Program-made: the position numbers and the translations under genes
Part shown: piece after piece, positions 24,711 to 64,000 of the stretch
Numbering within the stretch: position 1 is the stretch's first letter
How the letters are laid out: each line of letters starts with the position of its first letter
Assembly: GCA_964187785.1 (NCBI GenBank)
Contig: OZ076409.1
Coordinates: forward strand, 2,978,001-3,042,000
Direction: 5' to 3'
Length of the DNA: 64,000 bases
From: Amphiscolops sp. MND2022
Lineage: Eukaryota
The notes under the pieces: generated by a model
Database searches by the model: none
The model's input: only the letters and a program-made list of their open reading frames with translations
Told to the model about the DNA's origin: nothing

Positions 24711-24713
24711 CTG

Positions 24714-25104: not shown

Positions 25105-25280
25105 CTGAAAAATGGGAAAATTGAAAAATAGTAACCAACCGACATCAGATGGTTGTCAAAATCACTCATCTCCATCTAACGAACGGTTCGTATGACGTAG
25201 TAAAGTAAATTGCACGATAGTTTAGATAACGATGCTCATTTTCTTACTGTTCTTGTATATTTAGTCCTCTGTAAATTAGT

Positions 25281-25698
25281 TGTGATGCCATGATGCATGT
25301 CCTCAAAGATTTTATAAATCTGAAATACTCTGAACTCTTAACAAAAGAAATTAGTAAATCTAATTGAATCTAGAAACCAATTATTCTAGAAGAAACTTCT
25401 TTTAATATATCCTGTACCAAGCTTCCCCAATTCATCCTGTTGATGTCACATTGTAATTGATGAAACCTACCCTAGTTAATAGAATATATCTACTCGGAGA
25501 AATTGAGAATTCTTCCTAGCAATCAGTCTTCTTCCAGCACTTCAAGAACTGAGATCTCAGAAATAGATTGTACTCTGAACTAGCTAGCTACCAAGTATCA
25601 GATAAAAGATAAGACGACTCTGCTGTTAAAATCTTAGACTTCTTATGTCAGTTCTAACTCGTATAAAAGAAACAACTACTAAAACTTTTAACAGCTCA
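25281..25698 (+). repeat. 5' LTR of the giant element
   Basis: TGTGA...GCTCA; identical by eye to 42886-43303. Confidence 0.96.
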
Positions 25699-25700
25699 AT

Positions 25701-25712
25701 TGGTGCGACCAA
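25701..25712 (+). promoter_or_regulatory. Putative primer binding site (TGGTGCGACC...), tRNA not identified
   Basis: TGG 2 nt downstream of the 5' LTR. Confidence 0.6.
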
Positions 25713-26419
25713 GAAAATTCTTCTTTCTCTCCCATTTATTTCACATATCTACAATTGTTGTACACCTTTTCTCAACTTTCTCATCCGATATCTCTTTGTT
25801 CGACACACAGTCTCTCCACCTCTCAATATTGCATACCGTTATTAACTTCAACGTTGCAACCAATTTCTACTTGAAATTGATCCGTGTTGCTATGGTTCTG
25901 ACTGCGTTCATCAACGTAATTCCTGTCAGTCATACTTCTTGGTTCTGACTACGTTTCTTCACGTAATTCCTGTCCGTTAAATTTTTCGTTCCAACCACCT
26001 CTGAGTGAATTCGTGTTGGCTTTCTTCCTCTCTCTTTCTTTCGTTCCAACCGCAGACGTGCGATACGTGTTGGCCCTTCTACAGTGCTATCCAGCGATTC
26101 CTGCTAGTAGAAATCTTTTTGGTTCTAGCCGCTTGGATCAACTTTAAAGTTGGCACACCTATAAAACACATATTTTTACATAACATAATTATAATACTTT
26201 TCTTATTCTCTCTTCTATAATACCAACCCCATACAAAACTCCTTTGAAACTCTCTTACGGATCCAAATATATAACAATTAAAATATATAATACATAATAA
26301 TCTAAATATATAACATATATCACATCTTTCTTTATATAACTTTCATTTTTTCATACAACTATATACAACAAATTCCTGTACAACCTTTTTGACAAACTTT
26401 AAATAAAACTTTATTGTAT

Positions 26420-26542
26420 ATGCCGCCTTCAGTAGACACTATAGTTAAACTTATTGTCTGCTTTTGGTTTTTTGTTGCTATCATTGCCGGTCTTGCACTT
26501 TTTCTAGACAAATTTTTAATTTCATTCATACCAAAATTTTAA
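26420..26542 (+). CDS. 40-aa hydrophobic upstream ORF (MPPSVDTIVKLIVCFWFFVAIIAGLALFLDKFLISFIPKF)
   Basis: ATG to TAA read by hand; one TM-like stretch; coding status unproven. Confidence 0.35.
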   Translation: MPPSVDTIVKLIVCFWFFVAIIAGLALFLDKFLISFIPKF

Positions 26543-26561
26543 AGTACAATCTTTTTCTTCT

Positions 26562-26801
26562 ATGTTAACAAGTATAGTACTACCTCTTTTTGGACTACTT
26601 AGTATATACCACACTTTCAAAATACTTATCCAATATATACAAAACCCACTTCTTCTTTTCATAAGTATTGTACTTACTATTTTTCTACAAGTTATTTTTA
26701 TAGATCAAATTTTACCATATAATTCACAGTTCAATACAAAATATCTTCTTTTCCGATACATCTATCCTTTATGGCAATCCTATTGTACTAATCAAACTTA
26801 A
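26562..26801 (+). CDS. 79-aa hydrophobic upstream ORF
   Basis: ATG ORF with two hydrophobic stretches, ending 9 nt before the gag ATG. Confidence 0.35.
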   Translation: MLTSIVLPLFGLLSIYHTFKILIQYIQNPLLLFISIVLTIFLQVIFIDQILPYNSQFNTKYLLFRYIYPLWQSYCTNQT

Positions 26802-26810
26802 TATCATATA

Positions 26811-29800
26811 ATGCTCCCCACTCCATTTACACTCTCTACTGATAAAAGACAAAATCGATCTCTTATACAATATGTAACACCTTTTCTACAAAATATTATC
26901 TTTCAGTACACTAACCCACTTCCATTTGAAACAGAACCCCATATATTACACACTATTCCATTAATACGAGAACATTGTGATTCCTACTTATATTATATCC
27001 AATATAAAACACTTGACATAACACCATCACAAACCCCTTTCCAAGTTATTTTTAATCCTGTTAAAGGAATAAACTCTGGAACATTTTATAGAACTATACA
27101 TCCACAGAATATTACACTTTCTATACAAGATGTTTTTCGCACATACATGCAAAAACTCATTGAATTCAATGAACACCAAGACATACCACCTTATCGTCCT
27201 TCTCATTTACAAGAACTCAAACACTTATCTGAATATTTCGAGGTCCCTGATCTTGACACAAAAGTTCAAAGACATGGTAACCCTCATTATTGGCTACAAC
27301 GAGATATATTACAAATAAAGAATTTCGAGTTTAAATTCTTTACAAAAATTACCCTTACAGATGACACTATACCTCAAGTCAAAATTTTTACACATTTCTT
27401 ATTAAAATTCTTTAGATTTAACTACCAATTACTTTGGGAACAAAAAGACCAAAACGCTTATACTAACTTCCCAAAAGCATTAACAGATATAGAACTCTTA
27501 CCATACATCATAGACAATAAAAACAAACACTCACATTACATTGATCTTACTTCATTAAATGTTACACATTTTGAACAAATAAACCTAGATCACAACTTTG
27601 TACTTGAACATTCTGAAACGTCAGATAGTAGACCTTATATTACATCTGATACTTTATATCACACAACTCTTCCAACACAAACATTTAATGTTGAACCTCC
27701 ATATATCAGACAACAATCAGAACAATCAGAACAAGAATCTATAACACAAGAAACACTTGTTCATCTTTTTCAAAATCCTGATTCTCCTCAAGAACAATCA
27801 TCACAGCCACCACAATCACAAACCTCTGATACGCGACACCCAAATCCGTCTGAAACACATACACTTCCCAATACATCAGAATTTTCTGACGAAACAGTAC
27901 AAAATCCACAAAGTTTTACAATAACTGAAGACTCCAATCTTATAACAATTCCTACCCATAATATCACCCAAAGGACTACAAATCAGAATCAAGACAACCC
28001 TTCAAATATCATTACAGACAATACTTCTGTTTTATCTCCATATAATACTAACATTACACAACCCTCTCAGACACAAATAATACCTCCTCGAAATTATGAT
28101 CCACCTCCTATTCCATCTCAATTCTCAGCTCAAATAAATACTCATGTCTCTCCTCAACCAAGCTCATCAAATACACACTCTATTACACAGAACAATAATA
28201 CAGTACATTTCCAAACACCAACTCCACCTTCATCTTCTGAAATACAAACTTCAACTTATACTCCAGCTCAAACTAACCCAGTACAAACTACACAGCCTAC
28301 CTTAAATATTAACACAATTCATTCTAACCCGCTCTCTAACTATACTACAGCCAGACATCTGTCTCGGCCTCCATTACAACCTATATTAACTGACCCATTA
28401 TCATACAATCTCACCAGTACCAATCCAAGTCATACCCAACAATGTCAAATAAATTATAACACACACAACCAATTAAACACTCTTTCTTCCCAGCATACAT
28501 CTAATACAATCCCTCCTACATTACAAACCTCTCACTTTCAAATATCAAATCCTCCTTCAACAACAATTAGAACTAACCCTCACTTTCATAATACTTCAAC
28601 TATCCCTTCAACTAATATTTCAAATCATCCTACATACAATACAACACCTCCATCTACTATGTCTCATAACACTATGTCACATCCAACATATATTAACTCT
28701 TCTACTTCTATATCAGAACCCATTAAACCTTTTGATGGACTCGATCACAACTATACACCTGAAGAATATTTACAACATATTGAGGCACGTGTTACATTCT
28801 CCTTAGGTTTACAACCTACATCAGAACATGAATATAAATTTTGGCACGCTCGCGGCATGGCTTTCATACAATGCTCTTTAACAGGTACAGCACTAAGCTG
28901 GTACATCCGTTTAAACGACACTTATAAACATGATTGGCACGCTTTCGTACAAGCTTTCAAAAAACAATTTTCCTCACAAAAGAACGCTTATTACGCTCAA
29001 GTTGAAGCCCTTAATTTAACAAAGAAAGATAATGAAACAGTACGTCATTTTGCACTCAAAGTTCAACAACTGGTTGAAAAAGGCTGGTGTAATGAGAATG
29101 CATCTACTATAAACCTTAAATGCAATGAAATCTTTACAAAAGGACTTCCAAAAACCCTTAAAGACTTTGCAAATAAAAGACAAGTAAAACACACCTCCAC
29201 TGTCTTAGAACCTTCAATTCCTTTCCATACCTTGGTAAAACTTGTTGACGCTGAGGATATTGCAAACGACAAAATTAGAACACATGATCTTGCACTTGAA
29301 ATCAATAATATTACAAAACAATTGAACACTCAAACCCTAGATCACCCATCTCAAGAACAACTTATGTATACACAACCCAAAGACCCAAATAACAAAAATA
29401 AACCTGCATATAAAAAATACTGCTCATACTGTCATAGAACAAATCACTCCATTTCTGCTTGTTTCAAAAAACAACGAGATGACGAAGATAAACGAGAAGC
29501 ATATGCTCGATCAAAATCTCCACAAAAATCATTCGTTCAGTACTTTCGTTCTCCTTCAAATGACAAAACAAAACACTATGATAATCGATATCGAAGTCGA
29601 AGTACTTCACGAGATAACTCTTATAACCAAAAATATTCACAAGATCGATACCGTTCTACATCTCGAGATAGAGACCGATTTCGTTATGATAAAAGTACTA
29701 CTCCTCCACATTACTCCAGATCCAGATATGACACATATAAACGTGATTCTCGATCTTACCGTTCTCCTTACAGATCTTCTTATAGATCTCCCTATAGACA

Positions 29801-32800
29801 AAATTCTCGTCCTAGATACAGATCACGCTCCTATTCAAGAGATGACAAATTTAACAAATACACAAATTCATATAGACCACCTTCTAGACCAAGAAACTCT
29901 CGATTTTCCAGATCCCGATCACACTCAAATTCTAGAAATAAAATCAATATAATACAACAACAAGAGCAAACAGACCCTATCAAATTTGAAGTACACATGT
30001 ATCACCCAACAGCAATGGCAAATGCTGTCACACCTACAAGCTGGTTTTATACTCTATATGTACACACCCCATCAAGTATAGTACAAAGAGACAACCCATC
30101 TAGATTAGAAATTGCATTCCTCCTAGATAGCGGTGCTTCCATTTCTGTACTCAATTATCCAACATACATAACTCTTACAAAACTTCTCGATATCAGACCA
30201 AATCACACCTCTGATGTCGGACCAACTAGAAATTCCAAAACACTAACTGTTGCAAACCAAACTGAAGTTCCTATTTTACATTATGCAAATATCATTCTGA
30301 ACACCACTATTGACGAAAACTCTCGATACTTTTCAGTACCCTTCGCAGTAGCTGATATTAAATACAATATCCTTGGTACACCATTCTTCGAAGACAATAT
30401 ACAAAACATAAACATACAAGACTTTACACTCGAATTTAAATACCAATCAAAAACACACCCAAATTATGCAAAATTTACAACACTTCTATCTAAAGATTAT
30501 CCATACTTCTCTTACATTTATAGAATTAACTCAAAAACTCAAATACGTCTAAAACCCAAATCTTCCAAAATTGCACACTTTCGGATCAAAAATTATCATA
30601 ATCTTCATTTTACAACTACACCACAAAACCACTTCTTTCCTTCAGTACCTCATACCTATTTTGCTACCAAATTCCGTACAAATTTCAATTTCATTGAAGT
30701 TTTTACAGACGACAAGCCAGACATATGTGCAACTATTATTCAAAACACTTCAAAACATATTGCAACGCTACCTACAGGACATATTGGATACATCGAAGTT
30801 CCAATTACTAATGAAAAACCTAAATTCTTCCAAGTTAACGACATTAATACTTTAATACATAATGTTACTCATACTTATCATCCTGATATTACCGAACCAC
30901 TTCCACAGACCAATTATATTGTACAATATGATGATCCTACAACCCCTCCTCCACAATTCTCTCTACATCAAATTTATATGACAAATGACAACATTCCAAA
31001 CCAAACTTCTCCTCTATATAACGTTCAGCCTACTTCTCATACCTCAGAAAAACGCATTTTCCCTTCTCTTCCATATACTTCTGAAAATCTGAAATTTATT
31101 AACAAATTTAATTTCCAATTTTCTGATCTTACAGACTCAGAATACATTACTCTTTGCAATATGCTACTCAAATATAAAACATGTTATGCAACCCATAAAA
31201 ACGATGTTGGAAAAATTTCAACACCCTTTCGTATACGACTTAAACCAAATGCTCAACTTATGACACAACGTCCTTCCAAAGTTCCTATTCATTATCGAGA
31301 CAAATTAAATGCACTTCTCAAAGAACTTGAAAAATATAACATTATTAAACAAATTGGCTCTTCTCCTCAAGACAAACCCGTTTATGGCACAACTTATTTA
31401 AATCCTCTTATTATAATCCCCAAGGGAGATACAATAAAATGTGTATTAGACGCCCGACATCTTAATTCCAATACAGAACAATCTGATGAATCTTGGCCTA
31501 TTGAACCTCTTGCTCCACAACTAGCACGCGCAAACAAAAAGTACAAATCTGCTATTGACCTTATGTATGCCTATGCACATACACCTCTTGACGAAGATAC
31601 TATAAAACTTACTAGCTTCTCTTCAGGAGACAAACTTTTCGCTTTCATACGAGGCTTTTATGGTCTCAAAGGACTACCAAATTTCTTTACAAAACAAATG
31701 TCTACATTCTTTAAAACTCTTATAGAACAAGGTTTCGCGCTTGTCTACATTGACGATATATTACTTTTATCCGACTCTAAAGAACACATGTTTCAACTCA
31801 TAGAACAATTACACATTATCAGTACAAAAAATAATCTTAAACTAGCCCCTGAAAAATCCTTTTTCATGCTCCTCAAAGTCAAATTCCTTGGACATGAAAT
31901 TGGTTACAATACAATTAAACCAATTCATTCAAAAATTGCAGCTATTCATAAGATCCCTTCTCCAACTGGCAAAGTTGCCTTAATGAGTTTCATTGGCGCA
32001 CTCAATTTTTACACCAAATTTATTGAAAAACTACATATTAACCTCAAACCGTTTTACGATCTTTTACATGAAAACACTCCTTGGAAATGGACAGACGAAC
32101 ACGAAAGTCTATTCCAAAAACTTAAAATGTCTCTCACTTCTGAAACAGAATTAACAATACCGAACACAAAACATCCATTTTTCATTACAGTTGACGCTTC
32201 CCTTATTGGATTAGGCGCTGTCTTATTCCAGTTAAATGAACAAAACAAAATGAAAGTCATATCGTACAACTCTCGTATACTTAACCCACAAGAACAAAAA
32301 CTCTCCACACTTGATAGAGAACTCCTTGGTATAGTACACGCACTTCAAATCTATGAATTTCTTATCATAGGTTCTCCACATCCAATACACATTTTCACTG
32401 ATCACAAACCTTTATTACATTGTTTTACAAAGAAAGGTAATCTCAGCCCTCGTTTCTATAGAGCTCAAATGCAATTGACAAAATTTTCAAAACTCAAAAT
32501 AATTCACACCCCTGGAAAAAATCTCTCTGTTGCTGATGTGTTGAGTCGCTCATTCACAAAAGCTGAATTACAACTTAACCAATTAAAACATAAACACCTC
32601 CCACCACAAATCGATTTTGCACTTTTACAAGATAACACTCTCAAACGTGTACATTACTTAATAAAACATGAAGAAATTTTACCTCATCAAAAACATGACT
32701 CTCATCCAATTCTTGCTGATTATGGTACAGATCAATTCTCTATTCGTATCAATGATAAAGGAAATGACATTATTGTAAAACCCTTACAATCTTTCTCCTT

Positions 32801-33491
32801 CAAATCTGTAACTCCTTTTCAAACCAAATTTAAGACACCTACAAAAAAGAATAACAAAACCCTTCATCAACAATCTCTCTTACTCAATGATACTGACGTT
32901 ACAAGTGATGACGAAGATCATATTTACACCAGAATTCCAAAATCTGACTCTTCCTTCTCACAAGATACTACACTACAAACAGAAAATTATTCTACTCTTA
33001 AACAACCAAGTCACAACACTTCACAGAAATCAATTTCTGCAATAAATGTACAACCAAATTTACCATCTCTCACACACTGTCAACAAATTATACCTTTTTA
33101 TGATACATCATTTTTTAAGTACAAAAACTATTTTCAAGGTTTCTTCCTTCCAGATGATTACTCATTGGACATAAAAACTCTCCAACAACAGCAATCCCAA
33201 GATCCGGTTCTTAGAACTGTTTATTCTTGGTTACTAAACAATGAAAAACCCGAATTTATAACACCTCTTATCACTGGTACTCCATTTCTACATGTATATT
33301 ACAAAAGATTTTCACAACTTTTCATTGATGAATCCACTAATCTTATTAGTCTGTATATTACAAACCCCACTGTTAATAACCAATCCTCTACTCCAAATTT
33401 TGTACTACAGATACTATTCGCATATGCCTACCTTTCCGACTGTTTAAAACTGTCTTTAACAAACTTCATGAACATTCTCACACTGGTATGA
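26811..33491 (+). CDS. Gag-PR-RT-RNase H polyprotein (2226 aa) of the giant element
   Basis: Capsid-like IKPFDG region, CCHC knuckle CSYCHRTNHSISAC (29421-29462), RS-rich tract, protease LLDSGAS (about 30126), RT YIDD (31746), RNase H VDAS/TDHKPL/ADVLSR. Confidence 0.96.
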   Translation: MLPTPFTLSTDKRQNRSLIQYVTPFLQNIIFQYTNPLPFETEPHILHTIPLIREHCDSYLYYIQYKTLDITPSQTPFQVIFNPVKGINSGTFYRTIHPQNITLSIQDVFRTYMQKLIEFNEHQDIPPYRPSHLQELKHLSEYFEVPDLDTKVQRHGNPHYWLQRDILQIKNFEFKFFTKITLTDDTIPQVKIFTHFLLKFFRFNYQLLWEQKDQNAYTNFPKALTDIELLPYIIDNKNKHSHYIDLTSLNVTHFEQINLDHNFVLEHSETSDSRPYITSDTLYHTTLPTQTFNVEPPYIRQQSEQSEQESITQETLVHLFQNPDSPQEQSSQPPQSQTSDTRHPNPSETHTLPNTSEFSDETVQNPQSFTITEDSNLITIPTHNITQRTTNQNQDNPSNIITDNTSVLSPYNTNITQPSQTQIIPPRNYDPPPIPSQFSAQINTHVSPQPSSSNTHSITQNNNTVHFQTPTPPSSSEIQTSTYTPAQTNPVQTTQPTLNINTIHSNPLSNYTTARHLSRPPLQPILTDPLSYNLTSTNPSHTQQCQINYNTHNQLNTLSSQHTSNTIPPTLQTSHFQISNPPSTTIRTNPHFHNTSTIPSTNISNHPTYNTTPPSTMSHNTMSHPTYINSSTSISEPIKPFDGLDHNYTPEEYLQHIEARVTFSLGLQPTSEHEYKFWHARGMAFIQCSLTGTALSWYIRLNDTYKHDWHAFVQAFKKQFSSQKNAYYAQVEALNLTKKDNETVRHFALKVQQLVEKGWCNENASTINLKCNEIFTKGLPKTLKDFANKRQVKHTSTVLEPSIPFHTLVKLVDAEDIANDKIRTHDLALEINNITKQLNTQTLDHPSQEQLMYTQPKDPNNKNKPAYKKYCSYCHRTNHSISACFKKQRDDEDKREAYARSKSPQKSFVQYFRSPSNDKTKHYDNRYRSRSTSRDNSYNQKYSQDRYRSTSRDRDRFRYDKSTTPPHYSRSRYDTYKRDSRSYRSPYRSSYRSPYRQNSRPRYRSRSYSRDDKFNKYTNSYRPPSRPRNSRFSRSRSHSNSRNKINIIQQQEQTDPIKFEVHMYHPTAMANAVTPTSWFYTLYVHTPSSIVQRDNPSRLEIAFLLDSGASISVLNYPTYITLTKLLDIRPNHTSDVGPTRNSKTLTVANQTEVPILHYANIILNTTIDENSRYFSVPFAVADIKYNILGTPFFEDNIQNINIQDFTLEFKYQSKTHPNYAKFTTLLSKDYPYFSYIYRINSKTQIRLKPKSSKIAHFRIKNYHNLHFTTTPQNHFFPSVPHTYFATKFRTNFNFIEVFTDDKPDICATIIQNTSKHIATLPTGHIGYIEVPITNEKPKFFQVNDINTLIHNVTHTYHPDITEPLPQTNYIVQYDDPTTPPPQFSLHQIYMTNDNIPNQTSPLYNVQPTSHTSEKRIFPSLPYTSENLKFINKFNFQFSDLTDSEYITLCNMLLKYKTCYATHKNDVGKISTPFRIRLKPNAQLMTQRPSKVPIHYRDKLNALLKELEKYNIIKQIGSSPQDKPVYGTTYLNPLIIIPKGDTIKCVLDARHLNSNTEQSDESWPIEPLAPQLARANKKYKSAIDLMYAYAHTPLDEDTIKLTSFSSGDKLFAFIRGFYGLKGLPNFFTKQMSTFFKTLIEQGFALVYIDDILLLSDSKEHMFQLIEQLHIISTKNNLKLAPEKSFFMLLKVKFLGHEIGYNTIKPIHSKIAAIHKIPSPTGKVALMSFIGALNFYTKFIEKLHINLKPFYDLLHENTPWKWTDEHESLFQKLKMSLTSETELTIPNTKHPFFITVDASLIGLGAVLFQLNEQNKMKVISYNSRILNPQEQKLSTLDRELLGIVHALQIYEFLIIGSPHPIHIFTDHKPLLHCFTKKGNLSPRFYRAQMQLTKFSKLKIIHTPGKNLSVADVLSRSFTKAELQLNQLKHKHLPPQIDFALLQDNTLKRVHYLIKHEEILPHQKHDSHPILADYGTDQFSIRINDKGNDIIVKPLQSFSFKSVTPFQTKFKTPTKKNNKTLHQQSLLLNDTDVTSDDEDHIYTRIPKSDSSFSQDTTLQTENYSTLKQPSHNTSQKSISAINVQPNLPSLTHCQQIIPFYDTSFFKYKNYFQGFFLPDDYSLDIKTLQQQQSQDPVLRTVYSWLLNNEKPEFITPLITGTPFLHVYYKRFSQLFIDESTNLISLYITNPTVNNQSSTPNFVLQILFAYAYLSDCLKLSLTNFMNILTLV

Positions 33492-35008
33492 AAATCACCT
33501 ACAATACATTCAAACAATACTACTATATTCCATTCCTTGAAAAATGGCTTTCCATTTTCATACATGACTGTATTGAATGTCAACGTAATAAGCACTTCAA
33601 TATGAAAATTCAAACTGCTCCTACACAATCATTTTCAGAACATGCTCCATCTTTCAATTATAGAATCTCAATGGACACTAAAGGACCTATTAACCCTCAT
33701 TCTCATAACAAATCCTATATACATGTAATAATTGACGCTTTTAGTCACTTTGTTGTTACAGTACCCATCAAATCAAACAACGCAAAGACTGCTATCAAAA
33801 CTCTCTTACACCACTGGATTATTAAATTTGGACCACCCATATACCTTGTCACTGATCGTGGATCAGAATATGTTAACAAAGAAATGGCACACCTTTGTAC
33901 ACTTATGGGAATTCGTCATTCTCCTAGAACAGCTTATTCTCCTTGGACAAATGGCCTTGTTGAAGTACAAAACAGAAATCTTGGTACTCATCTTCGAATG
34001 TTCCTACATGACACACCTAAAGATTGGGCATTTCAAGTCCATATGTACGCTTATGCACATAATTCACAACCACTTTCAGAACTCAATGTTTCACCTCACG
34101 AAATTGTTTTCCATACTAGACCCAGAATACCCCTCACATTTGATTTAAACCTTAATCGAGATACCTCCAAGACATGTATTTCACGCTATTGCTCTCAACT
34201 CCCTGAACACTCTCACTATGATAAATCAGATTTAAACCCATTCTTCTATAAGACACTTTCAAAACCCATTCCCCAATGGTTTCTCGCTGTAGAAACTGCT
34301 ATGTTACAAATTTATTCCACAGTCTATGAAAACACCCTACGAAAAATTAATTCACACGCATACATTACAAAAACTTACCACGAAGGTAAACCCCTTCCTA
34401 TTGGTACCTTTGTTTTAAAACGCAATTTTACACATGTTCACTTTTCAGACAAACTCAAACCCCTTCGGATTGGACCATATAAAATTCTTGACAGACTATC
34501 AGACGTCACATATGCACTACTTGCACAAGATGGCTCTACAGTACACGTTCATAGAAATCATTTAATCCCATATTACCCTGAAGAACCACTCTTATATCCA
34601 CATTTGCGTAATTTTATGCGCTTTTCAGACACAACTCAAAACCAAATTCCACAAATTACCAGATATGCAAACAGTGATTCTTCCCCGTTTAATTCTGATG
34701 AATCTTTGTCTGAAGAAGATTCTCAAACATTTATGACACCACCATCATTTAGTACATCCAATCAAAATACACCATCTATAACATCCAATGACAAGTCTTT
34801 AACTTCCTCAACCAATGACAACTCCTTATATAGACATATAATTAATACCCCTCACACTAATGTCCCTAGTGACAGATCGAGACACCCTTCTAACAACCAA
34901 ACAACTTCACTTCCTCCTCTAATTGACAGAACCACAAAAACCACTTATAAACTACGACAACAACCCAAATTAGATTATAGACTTTTTATTACACCTTCAA
35001 AACTGTAA
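33401..35008 (+). CDS. Integrase of the giant element, in the -1 frame relative to gag-pol
   Basis: HHCC (LHEHSHTG...CIEC) begins upstream of the ATG at 33488; DDE core (SMDTKGP, VTDRGSE, GLVE); GPY motif. Confidence 0.94.
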   Translation, partial: CTTDTIRICLPFRLFKTVFNKLHEHSHTGMKITYNTFKQYYYIPFLEKWLSIFIHDCIECQRNKHFNMKIQTAPTQSFSEHAPSFNYRISMDTKGPINPHSHNKSYIHVIIDAFSHFVVTVPIKSNNAKTAIKTLLHHWIIKFGPPIYLVTDRGSEYVNKEMAHLCTLMGIRHSPRTAYSPWTNGLVEVQNRNLGTHLRMFLHDTPKDWAFQVHMYAYAHNSQPLSELNVSPHEIVFHTRPRIPLTFDLNLNRDTSKTCISRYCSQLPEHSHYDKSDLNPFFYKTLSKPIPQWFLAVETAMLQIYSTVYENTLRKINSHAYITKTYHEGKPLPIGTFVLKRNFTHVHFSDKLKPLRIGPYKILDRLSDVTYALLAQDGSTVHVHRNHLIPYYPEEPLLYPHLRNFMRFSDTTQNQIPQITRYANSDSSPFNSDESLSEEDSQTFMTPPSFSTSNQNTPSITSNDKSLTSSTNDNSLYRHIINTPHTNVPSDRSRHPSNNQTTSLPPLIDRTTKTTYKLRQQPKLDYRLFITPSKL

Positions 35009-35109
35009 TCTAGTCATTCTATCTGTTGGCTTACTCAAACCTAGTCACTCCGGTTGAATAAATGTTGAATAAATGAAATAAAACTCATAACAAGTTATCT
35101 TACAGATAA

Positions 35110-36366
35110 CCTGTTGAAAACACTTCAACAATCCTGGATCCTCCCTCTGATATCTCTCCATCAGCTCCAAGTATTCCTTCTACACCTGAATCTTCAGTAT
35201 CAAACACTACAAACTCTAGTAATGTAACTCCTACTACTCCTTCTAAAAGACCCAGATCATACATCTCTGAAACCACTTCTTCTTCACTTCTTCACAGACC
35301 ACCTATAACCGAAATTCCTATAAACACTCGTCCCCAACAAACTCCTATTAACACTCCTATTATACATATACCAAACCCTGAAAGTGTTGAACAATACGTA
35401 ACATACAAACACCCTACAGCTATAAAAACTGTTAGACTCCAACCTCAACTTAATCTAGTACAAATTCCTGATACTGAATATACGAAACTACCTCCACTAA
35501 AATTACCTTCAGAACTTAGCACTACAGAACTTAGCACTACTTCTTCAAAACTTTATCCACCATTAAAACCTCTTCGAAAACCCTCTACATCACTCTCAAA
35601 TCTCTTAGACAATAATACTTCTGACTACGCTCCATCACAAGACACAAGCTCATTTTTTGTACCTAAACATAGATATAATCTTCGTGACCTTCCTTCACGT
35701 AGACTTAGTACAGACACTTCCACACTCAATTTTTCCGCTCTTTCTAGCAATTCTGCATTACGACTTGTAAGACAACACGCTCAACCATTGTCCTCTGACC
35801 CATCATCTTCAGAACTCTTTCAATCTCCTTATTTTACTTCTGGTTTTGAAACCGCTTCATTACTCTCATCAAACCCACAAACTGCATTTCTATCAGGAGA
35901 TCTCTTTTCACAAGTAGTAATCCCTACTCCTGTTCCTGCACATATTAGACTACCTGAATACTATACTGCAGAACATTCTAGACCTCCAACCCCAAATTTT
36001 GCTGATTATCCACTTCGAGTCGATGGTATAATTATCTACGACCCACAAAACGATCCTCGATTTCCAATTCTTGCAGAACGTTTTATTAATAACAACGATC
36101 TCTTATCTCATAAACGTAAAGAAACAGAACTAAAACGTCTTCAGACACCAAATTTAGAACTTAAATTTGAAGTCAAAGTCAAATTTCAAGGATTAAATCC
36201 TCATCCAATATTTCACGTTTCTAAAATAGCACATAAAACCTCTCCTGCTCCTTTTGAAGTAGTACATATTGAATTCGAACGCGATCTTAATATACCCACT
36301 ATCACGTATGGCAACATTGTCTTCTGTAACCCATACTCTGGTCTCAAATATAAAACATCCTTTTAA
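35110..36366 (+). CDS. ATG-less Ser/Thr/Pro-rich ORF (about 418 codons) between integrase and env
   Basis: Stop-free from 35110 to 36363 (the ORF track shows only 35788 onward); overlaps the env start. Confidence 0.55.
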   Translation, partial: PVENTSTILDPPSDISPSAPSIPSTPESSVSNTTNSSNVTPTTPSKRPRSYISETTSSSLLHRPPITEIPINTRPQQTPINTPIIHIPNPESVEQYVTYKHPTAIKTVRLQPQLNLVQIPDTEYTKLPPLKLPSELSTTELSTTSSKLYPPLKPLRKPSTSLSNLLDNNTSDYAPSQDTSSFFVPKHRYNLRDLPSRRLSTDTSTLNFSALSSNSALRLVRQHAQPLSSDPSSSELFQSPYFTSGFETASLLSSNPQTAFLSGDLFSQVVIPTPVPAHIRLPEYYTAEHSRPPTPNFADYPLRVDGIIIYDPQNDPRFPILAERFINNNDLLSHKRKETELKRLQTPNLELKFEVKVKFQGLNPHPIFHVSKIAHKTSPAPFEVVHIEFERDLNIPTITYGNIVFCNPYSGLKYKTSF

Positions 36367-39015
36367 ATCTTACACAACCTCTTATATAACAACTATAATT
36401 CTTTTCTTACATTTCTTTAACTCTACCTTTTCCATACCTATAGCACTCCCTGACACAGAAAACTATCTTCCATCAGATGACCCGAATATTACAAATCTCA
36501 TGGTTTCTCATTATGATTGTGCAAAACAACACAATCTCAGACAATTTAATCTACTTAATGTAAAACAATGCACTGAAGCTCCTTCCGACATTAAACATGC
36601 AAGTGTTAAAGCCCGTGTATATGTCCGAGCAAAAGCTAAACGTATCAAAGCTTTCAAATGTGTTGCTTATGCAAAGAAAGAAAGGAAAATATGCTTTCAA
36701 GGATCTGTCAAATACCGTCGTGTTGATCGAACTGTATGGAATCATAATACATTACCGCTTCCTGTTACTCTTGACCCGGTAGAATGTAAAAACATTATAA
36801 GACATTTAAATGGTACAAATGATAAAATATTGAACAACCTTAACTACAACAAAACATTTACACTCTTAGAAGACCATTATTTTCAAGAACGTTTAGAACA
36901 ATATCAAACTCCTTTCACTGTATATCAATTGAACAAAATGTATACAGGTACATTTACATTTATGCCTGCTGATAAAAACTGGATATATGACCCTACAAAA
37001 AACCCTTATCATAACTGTCCTGCTCATCATCAATTCGAAGTCAACTTAGTTAGTTGGCGACTAGAAGTTTCCGAAATAGAACTTACATATGATGACACAT
37101 CAAATGATATGATAATTGATGGACATACATTACCCTGCTATTTTGCAGATGGCTTCTGTAAACCCACTACAAAAACTCCTTTTACCCTTGTTTGGTTTAA
37201 TGATGATTATTGTCTAATTTTTACCTTACAAGACTTTATTGGACGTATGACTGAAATTGAAGATAGATATTGGATTGAAACCGACTCTTTTGTACATTCT
37301 CCACATTCAGTAAAATCTCAAACTACTTCTGGCATAAAAGGTACAGAACATCCTTATGTTCATGCTCCCCATACACAACATCCAAATAACCCAAGTCTTT
37401 CAAGATTTGAAGTTTTTCCTACAGCACAAACCTTTTGTGGTAAACCAGACCCTCTCTATTCTACACAATACTCAGACTTTTTTGTTACATACACTGATGG
37501 TTTTAATATGCATACAGGACAACCTAATCCTCATTCCATAATTGATGAGTATATCTCTGGTAAAATAGTATTGGACACTTCAAAAAACAAATTTGTGTTT
37601 CCTGCATTAAATGTATCAAACAATTTCGCTACCATTGATTATGATGCACATATAAACACCAAAATTGACTACACTATTAATCATGTTTTTCGATCAATGA
37701 CAGTACAAGAACTAAATACTCTTCATACAATATGTGAACTAGAACGAAATCAACTTCTTACAATACTCGCTATGTCAGTACAAAATCCTCAACTTGCTGG
37801 TTTCCTTTTAACCGGTAATAGAAGTAACTTCTTATACGTTGAAGGCTCAACCGCCTGGCTTTATGACTGTCCTCATTTTTTATCTCCTTTATACAAAGCA
37901 GATAGATGCTTTGACCGTATACCCATACATTTTAAAGATACCTTAATGTACGTTGATCCTATTACAAGACAAACTTATGATTATGCTACACCAATTACAT
38001 GCGATAATAATCCACGTAACATTATTGAACTCGACCCTGATTCAGATGATCAAGACTTTTACATTCTTGGACCTGAACCTATCAAACGTAAACCTCCACT
38101 AATGTTTACACCCTCACAAATCAAAACTACAATACGCCCTAATACTTTTACAGCCCAAGATGCTGGTATATATTCAAATGCAGAACTTGATCAATTTTGG
38201 AACCGTATTTTATTTTCTAAACACTCTGATTCTACACTTCAATTGCTAGGTAAAGCTCTTAGTTATTCATTCATTTCATCTAATACTCCAAATTACGATG
38301 CAGATTCCCCTCAAGACTCTGGTAATCCTTACAATACAATACGAATAGGACTACATGATAAACTCTTGAATTTAACTCCTCTTTTCACACCTACATGGTT
38401 CTCTGATGCTTTTATTGCACTTTTTGATACCCTTGTTACATTCTTACACAATGTGGCATATACTTTTCTACATTTCTTTTTGTACAAGCTACTCTTACAC
38501 TTATTGTTAAACTTTACAAAACAATATCCATTAAATATAATCTTAAAAATAATATTACTTTACTTAGTTCTATTGCACATGGTTTTTTTAATGTTCTTAC
38601 AGCACGAATGGTCAGTGACCTACGTGAGACTCAAAACAAAAAACCCAAAAGTACACTTTTCAAATCCAAATCTTTAGATAACTTTATTGACACTTCTCCA
38701 AATTTAATTAACCATTCTACAGATGTTACTTCCCCTCCACCTTTTTATACCAAACGATCTAACAAAATTCAATTTCCTAAATTTAACTTCTTTCCGAAAC
38801 GACACCACAATTCTCACCATAAAACGACTCCACTTCCTTTCTCTTCTATCCAACATCCCCCACTTCCTAATTATACTCATAAAAACTTTCACTCGAATGA
38901 CAATCTAACCACTCAACATGACACTTTAATTAACAATCCTGTCACTTCTACTACGGATACACCAATTAAAATCTATTCACGAATAAACTATCCTTTTCCT
39001 CCTCCATCTTCTTGA
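36308..39015 (+). CDS. Envelope-like class III (chuvirus G / herpes gB-type) glycoprotein, with a frameshift near 38426
   Basis: Signal-like YITTIILFLHFFNSTFS; HYDC..LLNVKQC; CELERNQL..QNP..G..EG..DC..CFDRIPI..P.TR..C; GIYS..LD; sequons NIT, NGT, NKT, NVS, NRS; TM and tail continue in the frame of ORF 38608..39015. Confidence 0.85.
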
Positions 39016-39261
39016 ACTCTCTCTCAGTTCTTCTGAAACTCTCTTCCAGAACACTCGCCTGCTATTTCTTCACAATTGCTACTCCTCCAACACTTGAAAC
39101 TCTTGCAGAAATTCATCTTCCTCAGTCCAATAATACTTCTCTCATAATAACCATCTTCAAAAACTCTTCAACTAAAGTTGACAAATCCACTCGTTAGTGT
39201 AATTTATAGTACTTTAACTTTAAAGTGCTAAGGCCTCTTGGAATAGATAACACTGTGACTG

Positions 39262-40608
39262 TTGATGCTTTCTCAAACAATGACACAAGCACAAATTGAT
39301 CTACAAACACAGCTTGAACAAGCAACCCCAACAGATCTTATAACAAGACCTCTTTCAAATGATTCTCCTGTTCTCTATATTGACACTTCTGACAAAACAC
39401 CTCCAACTTTTCTTGAACCAATGGAGCACACAAAAGTTGAAAATGAAAATACAAAACCTACTCCTCCACAAGATGATACTGATCATACACAATCGACACC
39501 ACCTCCTCCAAAAAAGCGATATGAAATAATGAAAGATCCAATCTTTCTTTCATCACCAATATATCCTCCTTCAATACCTTCAAAAATTTCACTTTGCACG
39601 AATCGCGATGATCATTTGATCTCAATTCTTTCCACTGACGATTTCGTCTTTAAAGCACAACTAACTTCTCTATATATGCATCCTACGGACTACTCATTTC
39701 GCTTATATGACAAAAATCAAGACTTCTTCACATCCATTGCTTCCAAAATAATGGGTCCATACCAATATTGGCTCGAGAATGGAGTTAAAATTTTCTCTCT
39801 CCAATTCAATTTTCTTAGACCTTCTATATACGATCTCAAAACGGATGAATCTGATCCATCCTTTCTCTCTATAGCACAAAAAGCTTCTCATCATCAGACA
39901 TATACTAAATTTCTACAATACACGAAACCACAAAATTATATTTTTGTCAATTACAAATATACATCACCGTTCACAATGACAAATATGTACACTCTCGATC
40001 ATTCCTGTATAACAGGCTACCTTCGGAACTATGACCCTATAAAGCAATACTTCTGTTTGCTTCCATATAACAATACTTCACGTCCACTTATTGTACCTCA
40101 AGAATATCTTATACATTACGATGATTTTTTGTTGCCTTGCAACATCCCTACTCAAATTGCAAAACCTCTTACTGTCATTAAACACCTCGTTTCTTCTCCA
40201 CTTGACGATAAAGATAGAACATACTATACAGCACTCTACAAACAAACGTATTCCTACAATGAACTTCTCTTTATATCTGCCAAAACTATCTCTTTCATGG
40301 TACAAGCTGAACAAAAAACTGAACAAAAATCACACACTTCGCCCATCAAAAACACTCATGACAAACTTTCCTCTGTATTGACCAATCGAACACTTCGAGA
40401 CATAACAAATTTACTGGAACCCTATAAACGAAACTCCTCTGAAACACCTATCACAACACTCACACATATACTACACTGTTATGACAGAACACACAAACTC
40501 CTTCAGACACTCGATTTAGACTCTCAACGCATCACTCAATCATCCCAAGCAATCCAAACTGCTTTGGAAACTATAACTACTCTTTTTAATTCAACTAATC
40601 TTCATTAA
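39262..40608 (+). CDS. Accessory ORF (448 aa) downstream of env, unknown function
   Basis: Intact long ORF; C-terminus similar to ORF 63641..63979 of the related element. Confidence 0.75.
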   Translation: MMLSQTMTQAQIDLQTQLEQATPTDLITRPLSNDSPVLYIDTSDKTPPTFLEPMEHTKVENENTKPTPPQDDTDHTQSTPPPPKKRYEIMKDPIFLSSPIYPPSIPSKISLCTNRDDHLISILSTDDFVFKAQLTSLYMHPTDYSFRLYDKNQDFFTSIASKIMGPYQYWLENGVKIFSLQFNFLRPSIYDLKTDESDPSFLSIAQKASHHQTYTKFLQYTKPQNYIFVNYKYTSPFTMTNMYTLDHSCITGYLRNYDPIKQYFCLLPYNNTSRPLIVPQEYLIHYDDFLLPCNIPTQIAKPLTVIKHLVSSPLDDKDRTYYTALYKQTYSYNELLFISAKTISFMVQAEQKTEQKSHTSPIKNTHDKLSSVLTNRTLRDITNLLEPYKRNSSETPITTLTHILHCYDRTHKLLQTLDLDSQRITQSSQAIQTALETITTLFNSTNLH

Positions 40609-41018
40609 ACTCCTCTACAGGTAATATAAAGTTTTAAATTTTCTTCTCTGGTACATTCTATGGTACATCTGTGGCACATTCTACAAGGTATTTTCATTTT
40701 TATTTAACAAAAATCTTTACTTTTGAATGAAATCTTAGGACTGTTTTTTAAGTACACTAATTTTTCCTACAGTACATGTCAAAAACTAACTATTTTTTTA
40801 CTCAAAACACTACAATACAAGACATACAAGACAATATAAAATAACACTACATATGGTACATTATAGCACCCATTTTTGTTGTACATCTTTGACTTGATAT
40901 TGTCATTCTTCTTACACTTCCTTTGTTTTAGAAACATCCATTCTTCCTTCTCCTTCATCCAAATTCTTTCAGAACATCCCAACTTCTCTTTCTTCGTATT
41001 CTTCAAACTCTCGTCATA

Positions 41019-41471
41019 ATGGCTCCAAATGCTGAAACAAACGACATTCTAACAATGACTTCAGAATTTTCGAAAGTGCATAGTCTTAAAGCCGCCATAT
41101 TTCATACCATGGCCTTCAAACTCTCGCTTGAGATTCACAAAAACAAAATTACGCCAAAATGTCTCATCGCTTTTTTAAAAGTACTCTACAATGTCACGCA
41201 AATAAAGAAAAAGAAAATCACTTTCGAGCAATACTCGCGAATCCATCTTCAAGGACCTAAAATTGCCATTTGTGAAACGGCATCTAATGTTGTTTTCGTC
41301 CTCAATTCGTCCTTTACTTCAAAGGATCAGTACTTTCGTGCTGCTATCCAAGAAGCTACAGATGCTTTTAATAATATGTTGCAAGATTTCGGGTATACTC
41401 AACAACTAGAACTTTATGACCCGATCCAACACCAACCTCATCCTCCATCGCAAAACTCTCTCTTTCAATAA
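41019..41471 (+). CDS. Accessory ORF (150 aa), unknown function
   Basis: ATG ORF; ITFEQYSRIH matches INFDQYLHIH in ORF 62643..63296. Confidence 0.65.
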   Translation: MAPNAETNDILTMTSEFSKVHSLKAAIFHTMAFKLSLEIHKNKITPKCLIAFLKVLYNVTQIKKKKITFEQYSRIHLQGPKIAICETASNVVFVLNSSFTSKDQYFRAAIQEATDAFNNMLQDFGYTQQLELYDPIQHQPHPPSQNSLFQ

Positions 41472-41700
41472 TCTCTAACACAAACTTCTACTTACTTCTA
41501 TTTCACTCTTTGACTACATTTCGTCTCCAAATTCTTCATCTTCTTTCGATGATGCTTCGAAATGTGGTTGATGATTACTTCAAAGAACTCCTACACATGC
41601 TGAAACTCTTCACTTCACCCACCCACGATGGTCAACAACATCCATCTACACTTTGGGTTCATCGACGTTGCCAAAAATTGTCCTCGTCATCAGTCTCCAC

Positions 41701-41836
41701 ACTTCAAATGCTGACTTCTTGACTGGTCTTCATCCTCCAATGCTGACTTCTTGACTGGTCTTCACACCTCAATTGCTGACTTTGTGAACTGGTCTTCTTC
41801 ACACCTCAACTGCTGACTTCGTGAACTGGTCTTCAT
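41701..41836 (+). repeat. Four tandem 32-39 bp repeats (TGCTGACTT...ACTGGTCTTC) in the 3' UTR of the giant element
   Basis: Directly visible. Confidence 0.85.
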
Positions 41837-42885
41837 ACTTCAATGGCCAATACAAATTTCAAACTGAACTGTATAATCACTTATAATCAATATAACCTGT
41901 AACCCATTTTAATCAAATCATAATATAGACTAGTGCTATATACTCGTATCTAAATTTTAATGCTATATAATCTTATCTAATCTAGTGCTATACACTCCTA
42001 TCTAATCTTTCGCGCTATATAATCTTATTTAATCTTAATCTTATCTAACCATTGTATAACTACCCCCCATTAACCATAATCCTTCCCAAATTTTACCCAT
42101 AATTATTCTTGTAACCACAATATTATCTACTTCCATTGTATTGTGTATAGAACTTTAACATTATCTTACATAATTATCCACTTCAAAATATATTTTAATC
42201 CCCGTCTTTTTACAGAACACAAGTCCTACTTACAGCACAAGAAATTTTCTAAGATTTTTGGACAAAAATTTTTCTTTTACAAAACATGTTCTACAACTTT
42301 CCTTTAACCCTCAAAAGCATTCCCAAAAAATTTTCCAAAATTTTCTTTCGAACTCTTAAAAATTGTCACTTGTAAAATATGTCACTTCTAGTTTTCAAAT
42401 GTTTGAAACTTGAAATAGCCAAAGTTTTTTTTCAACTCTTGCTTCTGCTCTACTCTTCACTTTTGTTGAAAATGAACTCTCACTTCAACCTTGACTTTTC
42501 AAAACTTCTTCACTTTTGGTTCACATACCCGCCAATGTTGGTTCACAATTCATTGACAACTTCACGCTTTAATTCCTCAACTTGAAAAGTTTTCAATGCT
42601 GACTAACTCATGTTGATGAAACAAACTTTTTCAACAAGCCGATGGAAACTGAAAGAACTTGAACCTGTTTGAACCTTTTTGCACCAATTGAATCGTCTAT
42701 GACGTAAGAAGTCAAATCGTCTTAGGTTGTTCTCACTCCTTAAGTATGGTACTCTACAAAACAAAACTCATGCAACTGTAATACAACATATATGAAACAA
42801 ACCCATGCACATAACAAAAACTTCTAGAACTCCTCAAACTCAAAAGTGCATATATGTAATTTTTATTTTTAAATTCCCGGTTGAT

Positions 42886-43303
42886 TGTGATGCCATGATG
42901 CATGTCCTCAAAGATTTTATAAATCTGAAATACTCTGAACTCTTAACAAAAGAAATTAGTAAATCTAATTGAATCTAGAAACCAATTATTCTAGAAGAAA
43001 CTTCTTTTAATATATCCTGTACCAAGCTTCCCCAATTCATCCTGTTGATGTCACATTGTAATTGATGAAACCTACCCTAGTTAATAGAATATATCTACTC
43101 GGAGAAATTGAGAATTCTTCCTAGCAATCAGTCTTCTTCCAGCACTTCAAGAACTGAGATCTCAGAAATAGATTGTACTCTGAACTAGCTAGCTACCAAG
43201 TATCAGATAAAAGATAAGACGACTCTGCTGTTAAAATCTTAGACTTCTTATGTCAGTTCTAACTCGTATAAAAGAAACAACTACTAAAACTTTTAACAGC
43301 TCA
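42886..43303 (+). repeat. 3' LTR of the giant element
   Basis: TGTGA...GCTCA; followed by the TSD TAGT. Confidence 0.96.
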
Positions 43304-63979: not shown

Positions 63980-64000
63980 GTGGGAAATAATGAAAATTAA

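Follow-up and report, generated by a model that had tools for sequence, protein, structure and literature searches.

An 18-kb Ty3/gypsy retroelement with a predicted class III envelope and family-wide accessory reading frames in Amphiscolops

Introduction

The path from retrotransposon to complex retrovirus is an open question; in the published texts available to us gypsy accessory proteins with a known function are isolated cases (CERV, sORF2). The stretch of DNA analysed here, a window of 64,000 nucleotides, holds an LTR element of 18,023 bp (25281..43303, LTR to LTR) that poses this question anew: a preliminary description had seen in it a complex, recently active Ty3/gypsy element with an envelope, accessory genes and a diverged relative nearby, an identification that our analysis supports. 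The same description took Metaviridae to be 5-9 kb long with 1-3 ORFs, a premise that omitted cases documented in the accessible parts of four sources (PMC13524379, PMC6431247, PMC10309623, PMC11952523). These cases include 1,512 animal gypsy elements that carry an env, which in many of them is of gB type (PMC13524379), the planarian Burro at more than 30 kb (PMC6431247), and the accessory proteins of Cer1 and the MDG1 group (PMC10309623, PMC11952523).

Results

As the preliminary description had reported, the two LTRs are identical (418 of 418 bases) and flanked by a TAGT duplication; both start with TG and finish with CA, and with a target-site duplication of 4-6 bp this anatomy is a Metaviridae trait. 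A recent insertion of the window copy is supported, and the element lies antisense within an intron of an animal cadherin gene. The named cadherins that best match this host gene are about 25-41% identical and spread over many phyla. No tRNA end in the available table of PMC13524379 fits the putative primer-binding site, and the 64-kb window contains no tRNA genes. The non-coding stretch at the 3' end, about 1.4 kb long, matched no Rfam family.

Table 1. Features of the 18-kb element and of the second element in the window.
Feature	Position	Strand	Basis or remark
Left target-site duplication TAGT	25277..25280	+	flank comparison
5' LTR, 418 bp, TG...CA	25281..25698	+	418/418 bases same as 3' LTR
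Putative tRNA primer-binding site (PBS)	25700..25711	+	starts TGG, 1 nt past LTR
uORF1, 40 aa, one strongly hydrophobic segment	26420..26542	+	hydropathy 2.89 over 19 aa
uORF2, 79 aa, hydrophobic	26562..26801	+	ends 9 nt upstream of gag ATG; cluster n=197
gag-pol, 2,226-aa ORF	26811..33491	+	Pfam PF03732, PF00078, PF17917/17919; break ~33404-33410
Integrase: H2C2, core, SH3-like module, tail with YxLR	33380..35008	+	one polyprotein frame in relatives
Central copy of 8-mer CCGGTTGA	35050..35057	+	same 8-mer precedes 3' LTR
ORF A, 418 codons, P/S/T-rich, YNLR at residue 189	35110..36366	+	cluster n=650
env, predicted class III fusion glycoprotein	36308..39015	+	PF24664; ectodomain ORF 36308-38677, TM helix and tail 38428-39015
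ORF B, 447 aa, predicted helical C-terminal bundle	39265..40608	+	cluster n=1,036; no family
ORF C, 150 aa, no family	41019..41471	+	cluster n=590; exact sequence on 122 contigs
3' non-coding region, 32-37-bp and 52-bp tandem arrays	41472..42876	+	repeat analysis
Putative plus-strand priming site: T-tract, then CCGGTTGAT	42877..42885	+	without polypurine tract
3' LTR	42886..43303	+	pair to 5' LTR
Right target-site duplication TAGT	43304..43307	+	flank comparison
3' end of diverged relative	61337..64000	-	ORF B homologue 63641-64000; CCGG motif at 61614; LTR ~61603-61337
217-aa ORF of second element, in ORF C's place	62643-63296	-	position

Pfam matches, per-region identity to relatives and motifs read from the sequence give the gag-pol frame a 270-aa N-terminal domain of no family, a P/S/T linker, capsid, a CCHC knuckle, an R/S-rich stretch, protease (LDSGA), RT (YIDD), RNase H and a long bridge of about 295 aa. 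Pfam matches on the relative P0137 and on the window ORFs place these parts in the order gag-PR-RT-RNase H-IN, a Metaviridae trait, with the protease called in the 18-kb family by motif only (Pfam protease matches occur in P0205). Among PDB sequences the RT/RNase H region matched Ty3 best (E 2e-38), followed by 8r0s (6e-28), foamy virus (1e-18) and others at 2e-7 or weaker, and by this measure it is nearer Ty3 than caulimoviruses, foamy viruses or orthoretroviruses; the integrase matched Ty3 (4e-13) level with deltaretroviral integrase (6e-13), and the capsid region had no PDB sequence match. In a quick RT tree of 48 rows, from which 18 of 126 matches had been dropped for short coverage and the remainder collapsed at 88%, an 8-row clade without a named member stood on a long stem (support 100, stem 1.47).

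The integrase had been described as a separate ORF. P0137 (2,731 aa, 97-98% identical) reads uninterrupted across the point at which the window frame is broken, and the integrase is therefore not a separate gene. The notion that it is one, reached through a programmed frameshift, draws on P0138, which terminates at the window's junction with the same tail, and on P0141 (83%), which begins just behind it; we regard it as highly improbable, since 7 of the 8 proteins of at least 94% identity that reach the junction (among 55 mapped) run through, the break removes the start of the integrase zinc-binding domain, and the X1 and X2 contigs differ in length from the window there. The env frame of the window copy breaks similarly at about 38407-38425, leaving the transmembrane helix and tail in a frame other than that of the ectodomain, whereas P0219 (901 aa) reads through into the downstream frame. 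The reading frames of the preliminary description are present in the order given; its separate integrase ORF, like the short env, results from a frameshift in the window copy, and the family has fewer, longer ORFs than were counted. Unless these breaks are assembly errors, the window copy is broken in both pol/IN and env, and the preliminary description, which spoke of a potentially infectious lineage, overstated its case here.

The protein encoded by the intact env frame, P0219, has hydrophobic segments at residues 27-45 and 715-733, consistent with a signal peptide and a transmembrane helix, and showed no furin site. Env matched Pfam PF24664 well above threshold (E 1e-24, 87 bits, cutoff 27). 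Foldseek searches with a predicted model, whose mean pLDDT was 45.5 with mostly confident residues only at about 94-430, returned 77 BFVD matches at E<=0.001, the best being a chu-like virus glycoprotein (E 2e-16), and 38 PDB matches at E<=0.001, herpes gB throughout among the matches listed. TM-scores were 0.1-0.2, and the highest VIA score, against HCMV gB domain II, was Z 7.1 (rmsd 2.9 over 80 residues), every VIA Z lying below 8; the env alignment, used as a profile against the sequences in PDB, gave no match. On the Pfam match and the predicted fold, whose neighbors are chuvirus and xinmovirus G and herpes gB, Env is a predicted class III (chuvirus-G/gB-like) fusogen, not an envelope of the baculovirus F type, which sets the family apart from the genus Errantivirus in its narrow sense (Drosophila gypsy/ZAM).

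The remaining reading frames announced by the preliminary description, namely the PST-rich ORF, the 150-aa ORF and the uORFs, together with the long 3' UTR, were each located, and an ORF given as 448 aa was found with a length of 447 aa. Frames of 418 and 447 codons are expected by chance at less than 1e-8 and one of 150 codons at 0.11, while uORF lengths are common by chance. ORF A lacks an in-frame ATG and matches no Pfam or NCBIfam family; against P0127, P0121 and P0133 it shows 73% identity over 280 aa, rising to 82% in residues 271-380, such that its C-terminal part is conserved. ORF B has 461 relatives at E<=0.001, with identity down to 34% among the 150 listed, no usable Atlas match, no Foldseek match at E<=0.001 (model pLDDT 48) and a best E of 0.39 in a profile search of PDB. 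One fold candidate for ORF B, with a best VIA Z of 6.3, was rejected as a match to a helical hairpin, a common arrangement. ORF C is the most diverged coding stretch among those covered by the X2 contig, and its NCBIfam matches fell far below cutoff; Atlas scores of up to 0.84, including roadblock/LC7 at 0.82, provide a lead only. In sum, searches of Pfam, NCBIfam, PDB and Atlas found no function for ORFs A-C.

The two upstream ORFs may be membrane-like, a lead from their composition. The hydropathy of uORF1 was matched by 3 of 2,000 shuffles of the leader stretch, a stretch picked post hoc, and its exact sequence was absent from the protein collection searched. In the uORF2 cluster, all 15 members listed are 79 aa long with 72-79 residues identical. 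With ORFs A-C, the two uORFs bring the extra frames to five, none assigned to a known family and most of them also present in relatives.

The protein clusters of ORFs A, B and C and of uORF2 (Table 1) are joined by an env cluster of 1,758 members, many of them fragments, and those of the host cadherin exons number 2 and 2; these sizes count proteins, fragments included, over however many assemblies contributed, and the 18-kb family likely has hundreds of copies. The X2 contig (9,908 nt, another run) is collinear with the window copy from 34034, in the integrase, to the LTR and then enters a different flank. Three runs were listed as sources of such sequence, none of them from RNA, which speaks neither for nor against expression. 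Two of the accessory ORFs are retained in diverged subfamilies, and the sequences recovered place ORFs A, B, C and uORF2 family-wide. Fusions of env to ORF B, which are deletion products, occur in the 18-kb family (P0246) and in that of the second element (P0310; env 50%, ORF B 35%).

These observations bear on the possibility that the ORFs past the integrase are an unrelated insertion nested in an ordinary gypsy element, which the preliminary description had itself named as its refutation should those ORFs be absent from other copies. That ORFs A-C belong to no known family and that the 3' half is unusually long would fit such an insertion, but the X2 contig is collinear at another insertion site, the fusions occur in two subfamilies, the second element has the same 3' order, and no internal LTR pair or terminal repeats were found inside the element; we therefore give a nested insertion almost no credence.

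The second element, at the end of the window, indeed repeats the 3' gene order of the 18-kb element. Its earlier designation as a diverged member holds by protein, because no shuffle of 1,000 reaches the score of its ORF 63641-64000 against the ORF B C-terminus, and fails by LTR (107 of 500 shuffles reach the score; no likeness between the LTRs is detectable) and by the 217-aa ORF compared with ORF C (52 of 1,000).

A further alternative is that env and ORFs A, B and C were acquired together, in a single block, from a chu-, xinmo- or rhabdo-like virus with a negative-strand RNA genome, which would make the ORFs remnants of phosphoprotein, matrix or small genes. In its favor, a P/S/T-rich protein that is disordered apart from a small folded end and precedes G would be reminiscent of the genomes of these viruses, and the best structural neighbors of Env are chuvirus and xinmovirus glycoproteins. 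On the other hand, no Pfam, NCBIfam, PDB or Atlas match links ORFs A-C to viruses of this kind, the GC skew of the element is strongly negative throughout (-0.2 to -0.6 per kb), and YxLR is common to ORF A and the element's own integrase tail. We consider block capture very unlikely.

The YxLR motif itself occurs in the integrase tail of P0137, P0132, P0150 and P0193, although this tail is only 24-51% identical; it is missing from P0205, lies 108 residues before the end in P0040 and is found only near the N-terminus in P0010. In ORF A, 6.7% of shuffles carry YxLR and 0.4% carry YNLR.

Discussion

We propose, as probable though far from settled, that the window holds a recent, frameshifted copy of an 18-kb Ty3/gypsy family with a class III env and its own accessory frames, which likely replicates like a complex retrovirus, moving from cell to cell in enveloped particles. 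The LTR and target-site anatomy, the Ty3-type RT and integrase, and in relatives the single Gag-Pol-IN frame and membrane-anchored Env are direct observations. Under this proposal, an LTR-to-LTR RNA of about 17.6 kb would be both the genome and the message for a single polyprotein cut by the protease, with the minus strand primed by a tRNA at the PBS. Given the far downstream position of ORFs A, B, C and env, and the lack of an ATG in ORF A, these frames would have to be expressed via spliced or other subgenomic RNAs, and the unspliced RNA would need an export route such as CERV provides for Cer1. The YxLR in the integrase tail and ORF A might tether the complex to nucleosomes, as do Y537/R540 of foamy-virus Gag; the Y-x-x-R nucleosome-binding motif of foamy viruses lies in Gag, in the sources as available to us, and the analogy is offered as a lead. 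ORF C, being the fastest-changing of the coding parts compared, may be the best candidate for counteracting host silencing. The window copy itself would reflect assembly errors, or would have been broken before or just after insertion and mobilised by proteins from intact copies.

The same element could instead spread within its host only, from cell to cell or through the germ line, with Env and the small membrane ORFs used for soma-to-germline transfer or being lost, and no extracellular infectious stage. All RT relatives closer than about 43% come from ENA or Logan records, with none alike in viral contigs; a search of IMG/VR yielded 0 loci, and one of JGI metagenomes yielded 2 that were short and distant (26-28%). 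Moreover, many env cluster members are fragments, and the Drosophila MDG1 group crosses cells without Env by means of a small upstream membrane protein (accessible text of PMC11952523). Across three clusters, full-length Env (891-923 aa) is nevertheless kept, its cysteine spacing almost constant at identities of 53-91%, a retention that argues against decay and does not tell spread within hosts from spread between them. We rate spread within the host alone as a less likely but serious alternative.

A bolder extension of the replicating-retrovirus proposal, which we put forward tentatively and think rather doubtful, is that the family represents an undescribed clade of complex invertebrate retroviruses in Metaviridae, a counterpart of lenti- and foamy viruses. 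Such a clade would combine a genome of 18 kb with an envelope of class III, would make its accessory proteins, three of them large and two small, from subgenomic RNAs, and would anchor itself to nucleosomes in a foamy-like manner; its plus-strand primer, duplicated and not a polypurine tract, would split reverse transcription in two. It would be expanding now to hundreds of copies and would still be infectious.

Comparison with published systems, each as far as its text was accessible, showed partial likenesses. The element shares with those metazoan 'ancient errantiviruses' that have an env of HSV/gB type (Chary and Hayashi, eLife 2026, PMC13524379) a Ty3/gypsy pol, the gag-pol-env order, an env of class III whose product has a signal peptide and a transmembrane helix, multiple copies and a tRNA primer site, and the family fits a broad definition of errantiviruses (gag, pol, and an env of F or HSV/gB type with both membrane features) by P0137 and P0219, the window copy being interrupted in both. 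In contrast to the elements of that survey, it has Gag-Pol-IN in a single 2.7-k-aa frame, pol and env are separated by a 418-codon ORF, two further ORFs follow env, and its 18 kb compare with about 7.5-12.8 kb LTR to LTR in the annelid rows; the term 'accessory' does not occur in the available text. For non-insects, the survey's first filter set an upper limit of 1,000 nt on the distance from pol to env; the gap here being 1,299 nt, it could have missed such elements, which suggests that surveys limited to a 1-kb gap may overlook those members that are most complex.

Burro/GYPSM1 (PMC6431247) are likewise giant gypsies with env homology, accessory ORFs and thousands of copies. Burro differs in its length (>30 kb), in a polyprotein of about 4,900-5,100 aa with an F-type env in frame between gag and pol, where env here is a separate ORF downstream of IN, and in its apoptosis and ubiquitin domains, none of which were found in the 18-kb element. 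Cer1 of C. elegans (PMC10309623), a gypsy element whose single accessory protein, CERV, is made from a spliced mRNA and exports genomic RNA, is a possible model for what ORFs A-C do. Drosophila MDG1/412 elements (PMC11952523) also have two small ORFs 5' of gag (sORF1 and sORF2), one a membrane protein, but lack env, and the uORFs here lack a polybasic patch and an MGxxxS/T start. Foamy viruses and fish foamy-like ERVs of up to 17 kb (PMC6431247, PMC12125541, PMC6042332) are comparable in size, accessory ORFs and a Y-x-x-R motif; they are Retroviridae with another env class, and the element falls outside Spumaretrovirinae, its RT being nearer Ty3 and its env not retroviral. Nor is it a Troyka element (CG...CG termini, 3-bp duplication; PMC12440569), given its TG...CA termini and 4-bp duplication. 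As far as these sources extend, publications exist for gypsies with a gB-type env, for giant gypsies and for single accessory genes, and the combination found here was not found described in the literature searched, a search outside which lay most subscription papers and Repbase. A young, high-copy family keeping a class III env and several conserved, unassigned ORFs offers a natural subfamily series for finding the roles of such genes.

The absence of a polypurine tract, combined with a duplicated 8-mer, leads to a precise and testable prediction on how the plus strand of a very long LTR genome is primed. A polypurine tract is a common feature of Metaviridae, not a classifying one; ahead of the 3' LTR, a T-tract followed by CCCGGTTGAT stands in its place. 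The plus strand would be primed at the CCGGTTGA next to the 3' LTR and perhaps a second time at the central copy, which, we propose, would halve the length to be copied. This 8-mer occurs twice in the element against 0.03 expected, and its central copy overlaps a tandem duplication of 11 bp, a place where the X2 copy is shorter. Purine runs of at least 11 are found in the element at 36673 and 41204 only.

A young, multi-copy element within a cadherin gene

Examination of the ends of the 18-kb Ty3/gypsy element revealed the identical 418-bp LTRs and TAGT TSD reported in the preliminary description: 418 of 418 bases are the same, the repeats start with TG and end with CA, and TAGT lies on both sides. 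With no differences in 418 bases, the rule of three puts the 95% upper bound on divergence of the pair at ~0.7%, indicating that the insertion is very young in relative terms, as had been claimed. The coding strand is G-poor along the whole element (10% G, skew −0.42). Minus-strand cadherin-like exons occur to its left and right (11 stretches; those closest to the element are 24486-24785 and 47686-47967), which places it antisense within a cadherin-gene intron of the animal host. Taken together, the at least 11 exon stretches (8043-60576, minus strand) belong to one large Fat/dachsous-like gene, with only ~30% identity to named animal cadherins (~25-41% for the best of them), and all retroelements among them are intronic. 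The interspersed repeats might point to an acoel host. Acoel genomes are rich in LTR elements (PMC9911081), and the main survey of env-bearing metazoan gypsy elements (PMC13524379) includes no Xenacoelomorpha among its listed taxa.

Coordinates of the features discussed (window positions)
Feature	Position	Strand	Remarks
18-kb Ty3/gypsy element	25281-43303	+	18,023 bp
uORF1, uORF2 of the element	26420-26542, 26562-26801
ORF A, between pol and env	35110-36366
env	36308-39015
ORF B, ORF C, after env	39265-40608, 41019-41471
Second, diverged element	61337-64000	-
ORFs of 609 aa (open at left) and 1,426 aa	2-6407	+	GC-rich (~55%)
Ordinary gypsy element	14985-20842	-	5.9 kb; repeats 97% identical over 214 nt
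Dispersed repeat family, copies 1-4	7964-8019, 9889-10330, 13373-13800, 21392-21737	both orientations in family
Dispersed repeat family, copies 5-7	44037-44550, 47336-47668, 59703-60128	both orientations in family
Inverted repeats	50839-50952; 50972-51017 with 51611-51656		enclosing 180-aa ORF 51122-51664
Inverted repeat pair, ~700 bp	7181-7895 and 57782-58490		83-93% alike in matched pieces

A single Gag-Pol-integrase frame

In 26811-33491 Pfam recognised capsid, RT and RNase H domains, and in 33380-35008 the zinc finger, core and SH3-like module of an integrase. Among solved structures the RT is closest to that of Ty3 (E 2e-38, versus 1e-18 for foamy virus). Integrase had been described as a separate ORF, but this split is a feature of the window copy, and relatives carry a single frame. 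P0137, a related protein from the ENA/Logan records, is one frame of 2,731 aa, 97-98% identical on either side of the window break at ~33404-33410. When 55 proteins were mapped, eight at least 94% identical reached the junction and seven of these continued through it; P0138 ends there, and P0141 (83%) begins just behind it. Sister subfamilies also have single frames (P0132, 2,691 aa; P0150, 2,638 aa; P0040, 2,740 aa; P0193, 2,576 aa). At the pol/integrase break and at the env break alike, contigs from sequencing runs X1 and X2 are not of the same length as the window; these breaks are therefore either specific to the window copy or assembly errors.

A quick RT tree of 48 rows (18 of 126 hits dropped for coverage, the rest collapsed at 88%), built without named reference clades, placed the element within an eight-row clade consisting throughout of ENA/Logan records (support 100, stem 1.47 changes per site). 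The pol lineages P0010-P0049 stand at 43-49% identity. The N-terminal 270-aa Gag domain (26811-27620) belongs to no family; a subfamily whose RT is 75% identical retains it at 40%. The stretch at ~29580-29960, behind the zinc knuckle, is rich in R (24%) and S (22%).

Accessory ORFs are integral to the family

The ORFs behind integrase could have belonged to a nested insertion, but several observations argue that they are integral. A 9,908-nt X2 contig tracks the window from 34034 across ORF A, env, ORF B, ORF C, the 3′ region and the LTR, beyond which its flank is unlike the window's; the two differ by 378 substituted letters and 43 gaps over 6,949 nt. At 90% identity, clusters comprise 650 members for the C-terminal part of ORF A, 1,036 for ORF B, 590 for ORF C and 197 for uORF2, compared with two each for the two host cadherin exons tested, and the exact ORF C sequence occurs on 122 contigs. 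Assuming that the host is represented about twice, these numbers would correspond to hundreds of copies per genome, with fragments included among cluster members. Relatives of ORF A reach 73% identity over 280 aa and up to 82% in residues 271-380; one of them, P0127, has a longest contig equal in length to that of the pol protein P0002. For ORF B there are 461 relatives, and the most distant of the 150 listed is 34% identical.

The gene order extends to a diverged subfamily. In P0310 an env N-terminus (50% identical) is joined to an ORF B homologue (35%), and the end of that homologue closely matches the ORF at 63641-64000 of the second element; P0380 resembles both elements, with identities of 49% and 58%. 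These matches bear out the proposed second member and show that the env-then-ORF B order is maintained in that subfamily. ORF C showed the largest nucleotide difference among the coding parts covered by the X2 contig: 41001-41253 is equal in length but diverged, the next 104 bases carry 21 changes, and the following stretch is replaced. Family look-ups for ORFs A, B and C, and a fold search for ORF B, found no function.

A predicted class III envelope

In Pfam, the glycoprotein scores 87 bits against PF24664, whose cutoff is 27. Its frame in the window is broken at ~38407-38425, and P0219 (901 aa, from a cluster of 1,758) continues through; this protein has hydrophobic segments at 27-45 and 715-733, 16 cysteines and 10 glycosylation sequons, and a scan of its sequence found no furin site. 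The best viral fold matches of its predicted model (overall pLDDT 45.5, which is low, but better over ~residues 94-430) were chu-like and xinmovirus glycoproteins (Foldseek, E 2e-16), and the PDB matches listed were herpes gB (best E 3e-5). With a second aligner, HCMV gB domain II scored Z 7.1 (80 residues aligned, rmsd 2.9) and rabies G scored similarly, none of the matches reaching Z 8. The prediction that Env is a class III fusogen is thus well supported. Env relatives at only ~25% identity also occur in ENA records (P0311, the 38-member P0312 cluster, and P0313-P0317).

Comparison with known elements

The element is real and, by analogy, would function like an errantivirus in the broad sense; of the features on which the family could be judged, all were present except a polypurine tract, which is lacking in front of the 3′ LTR. 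A survey of animals lists 1,512 env-bearing gypsy elements, and those with gB-type env are widespread among them (PMC13524379); giant gypsy elements such as Burro and Ogre have been described, as have additional ORFs next to env in rotifer and plant elements. We did not find the full combination described in the literature that we searched: a length of 18 kb, Gag, Pol and IN in one frame, a sizeable ORF separating pol from a class III env, two more ORFs behind env, a pair of membrane-like uORFs and probably hundreds of young copies. With a pol-env gap of 1,299 nt, the element would fail the initial filter that the main survey applied to non-insects (at most 1,000 nt; PMC13524379).

The ORFs downstream of pol would need subgenomic RNAs, and ORF A has no ATG in the window copy. 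In Cer1, CERV is an example of an export factor that a gypsy element makes from spliced RNA (PMC10309623). Subgenomic expression and infectious particles, if true, would give the element stronger significance. CCGGTTGA occurs twice (0.03 expected): one copy directly precedes the 3′ LTR, and the other lies behind the integrase stop, 54% of the way through the element. This recurrence was spotted after the fact; in the second element, CCGGGATGGA precedes the LTR. Both uORFs are strongly hydrophobic. MDG1-group elements likewise carry two sORFs ahead of gag, one a FAST-like membrane protein (PMC11952523), but its basic patch and myristoylation motif were not seen in the uORFs here.

A further lead is the motif YxLR. 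In P0137, P0132, P0150 and P0193 it lies close to where the integrase tail ends, in tails that elsewhere share 24-51% identity. ORF A and P0127 have it as YNLR, P0205 lacks it, its position in P0040 is further upstream, and P0010 carries it only near the N-terminus. In foamy-virus Gag, invariant Y537 and R540 bind the H2A-H2B acidic patch (PMC12125541, PMC6042332), and YxLR might be a counterpart of this nucleosome-binding motif, although so weak a four-letter motif appears in 6.7% of ORF A shuffles.

Other features of the window

YxLR is also present in the 609-aa ORF at the left end. Neither this ORF nor its 1,426-aa neighbour has a Pfam match; the latter falls in a cluster of 581 members and is therefore probably the 3′ portion of a different high-copy element that has a large uncharacterised ORF. 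The ordinary gypsy element encodes gag-PR-RT-RNase H and integrase in broken frames, and its RT is ~32% identical to that of the 18-kb element. The 180-aa ORF likewise lacks a Pfam match, and together with its inverted repeats (50839-51656) is possibly a DNA-transposon remnant. The letters at the loose end of X2 contig 9 (window 33153) may resemble a commercial template-switching cDNA adaptor and imply nothing about expression. The seven dispersed repeat copies are ~60-96% alike and MITE- or SINE-like.
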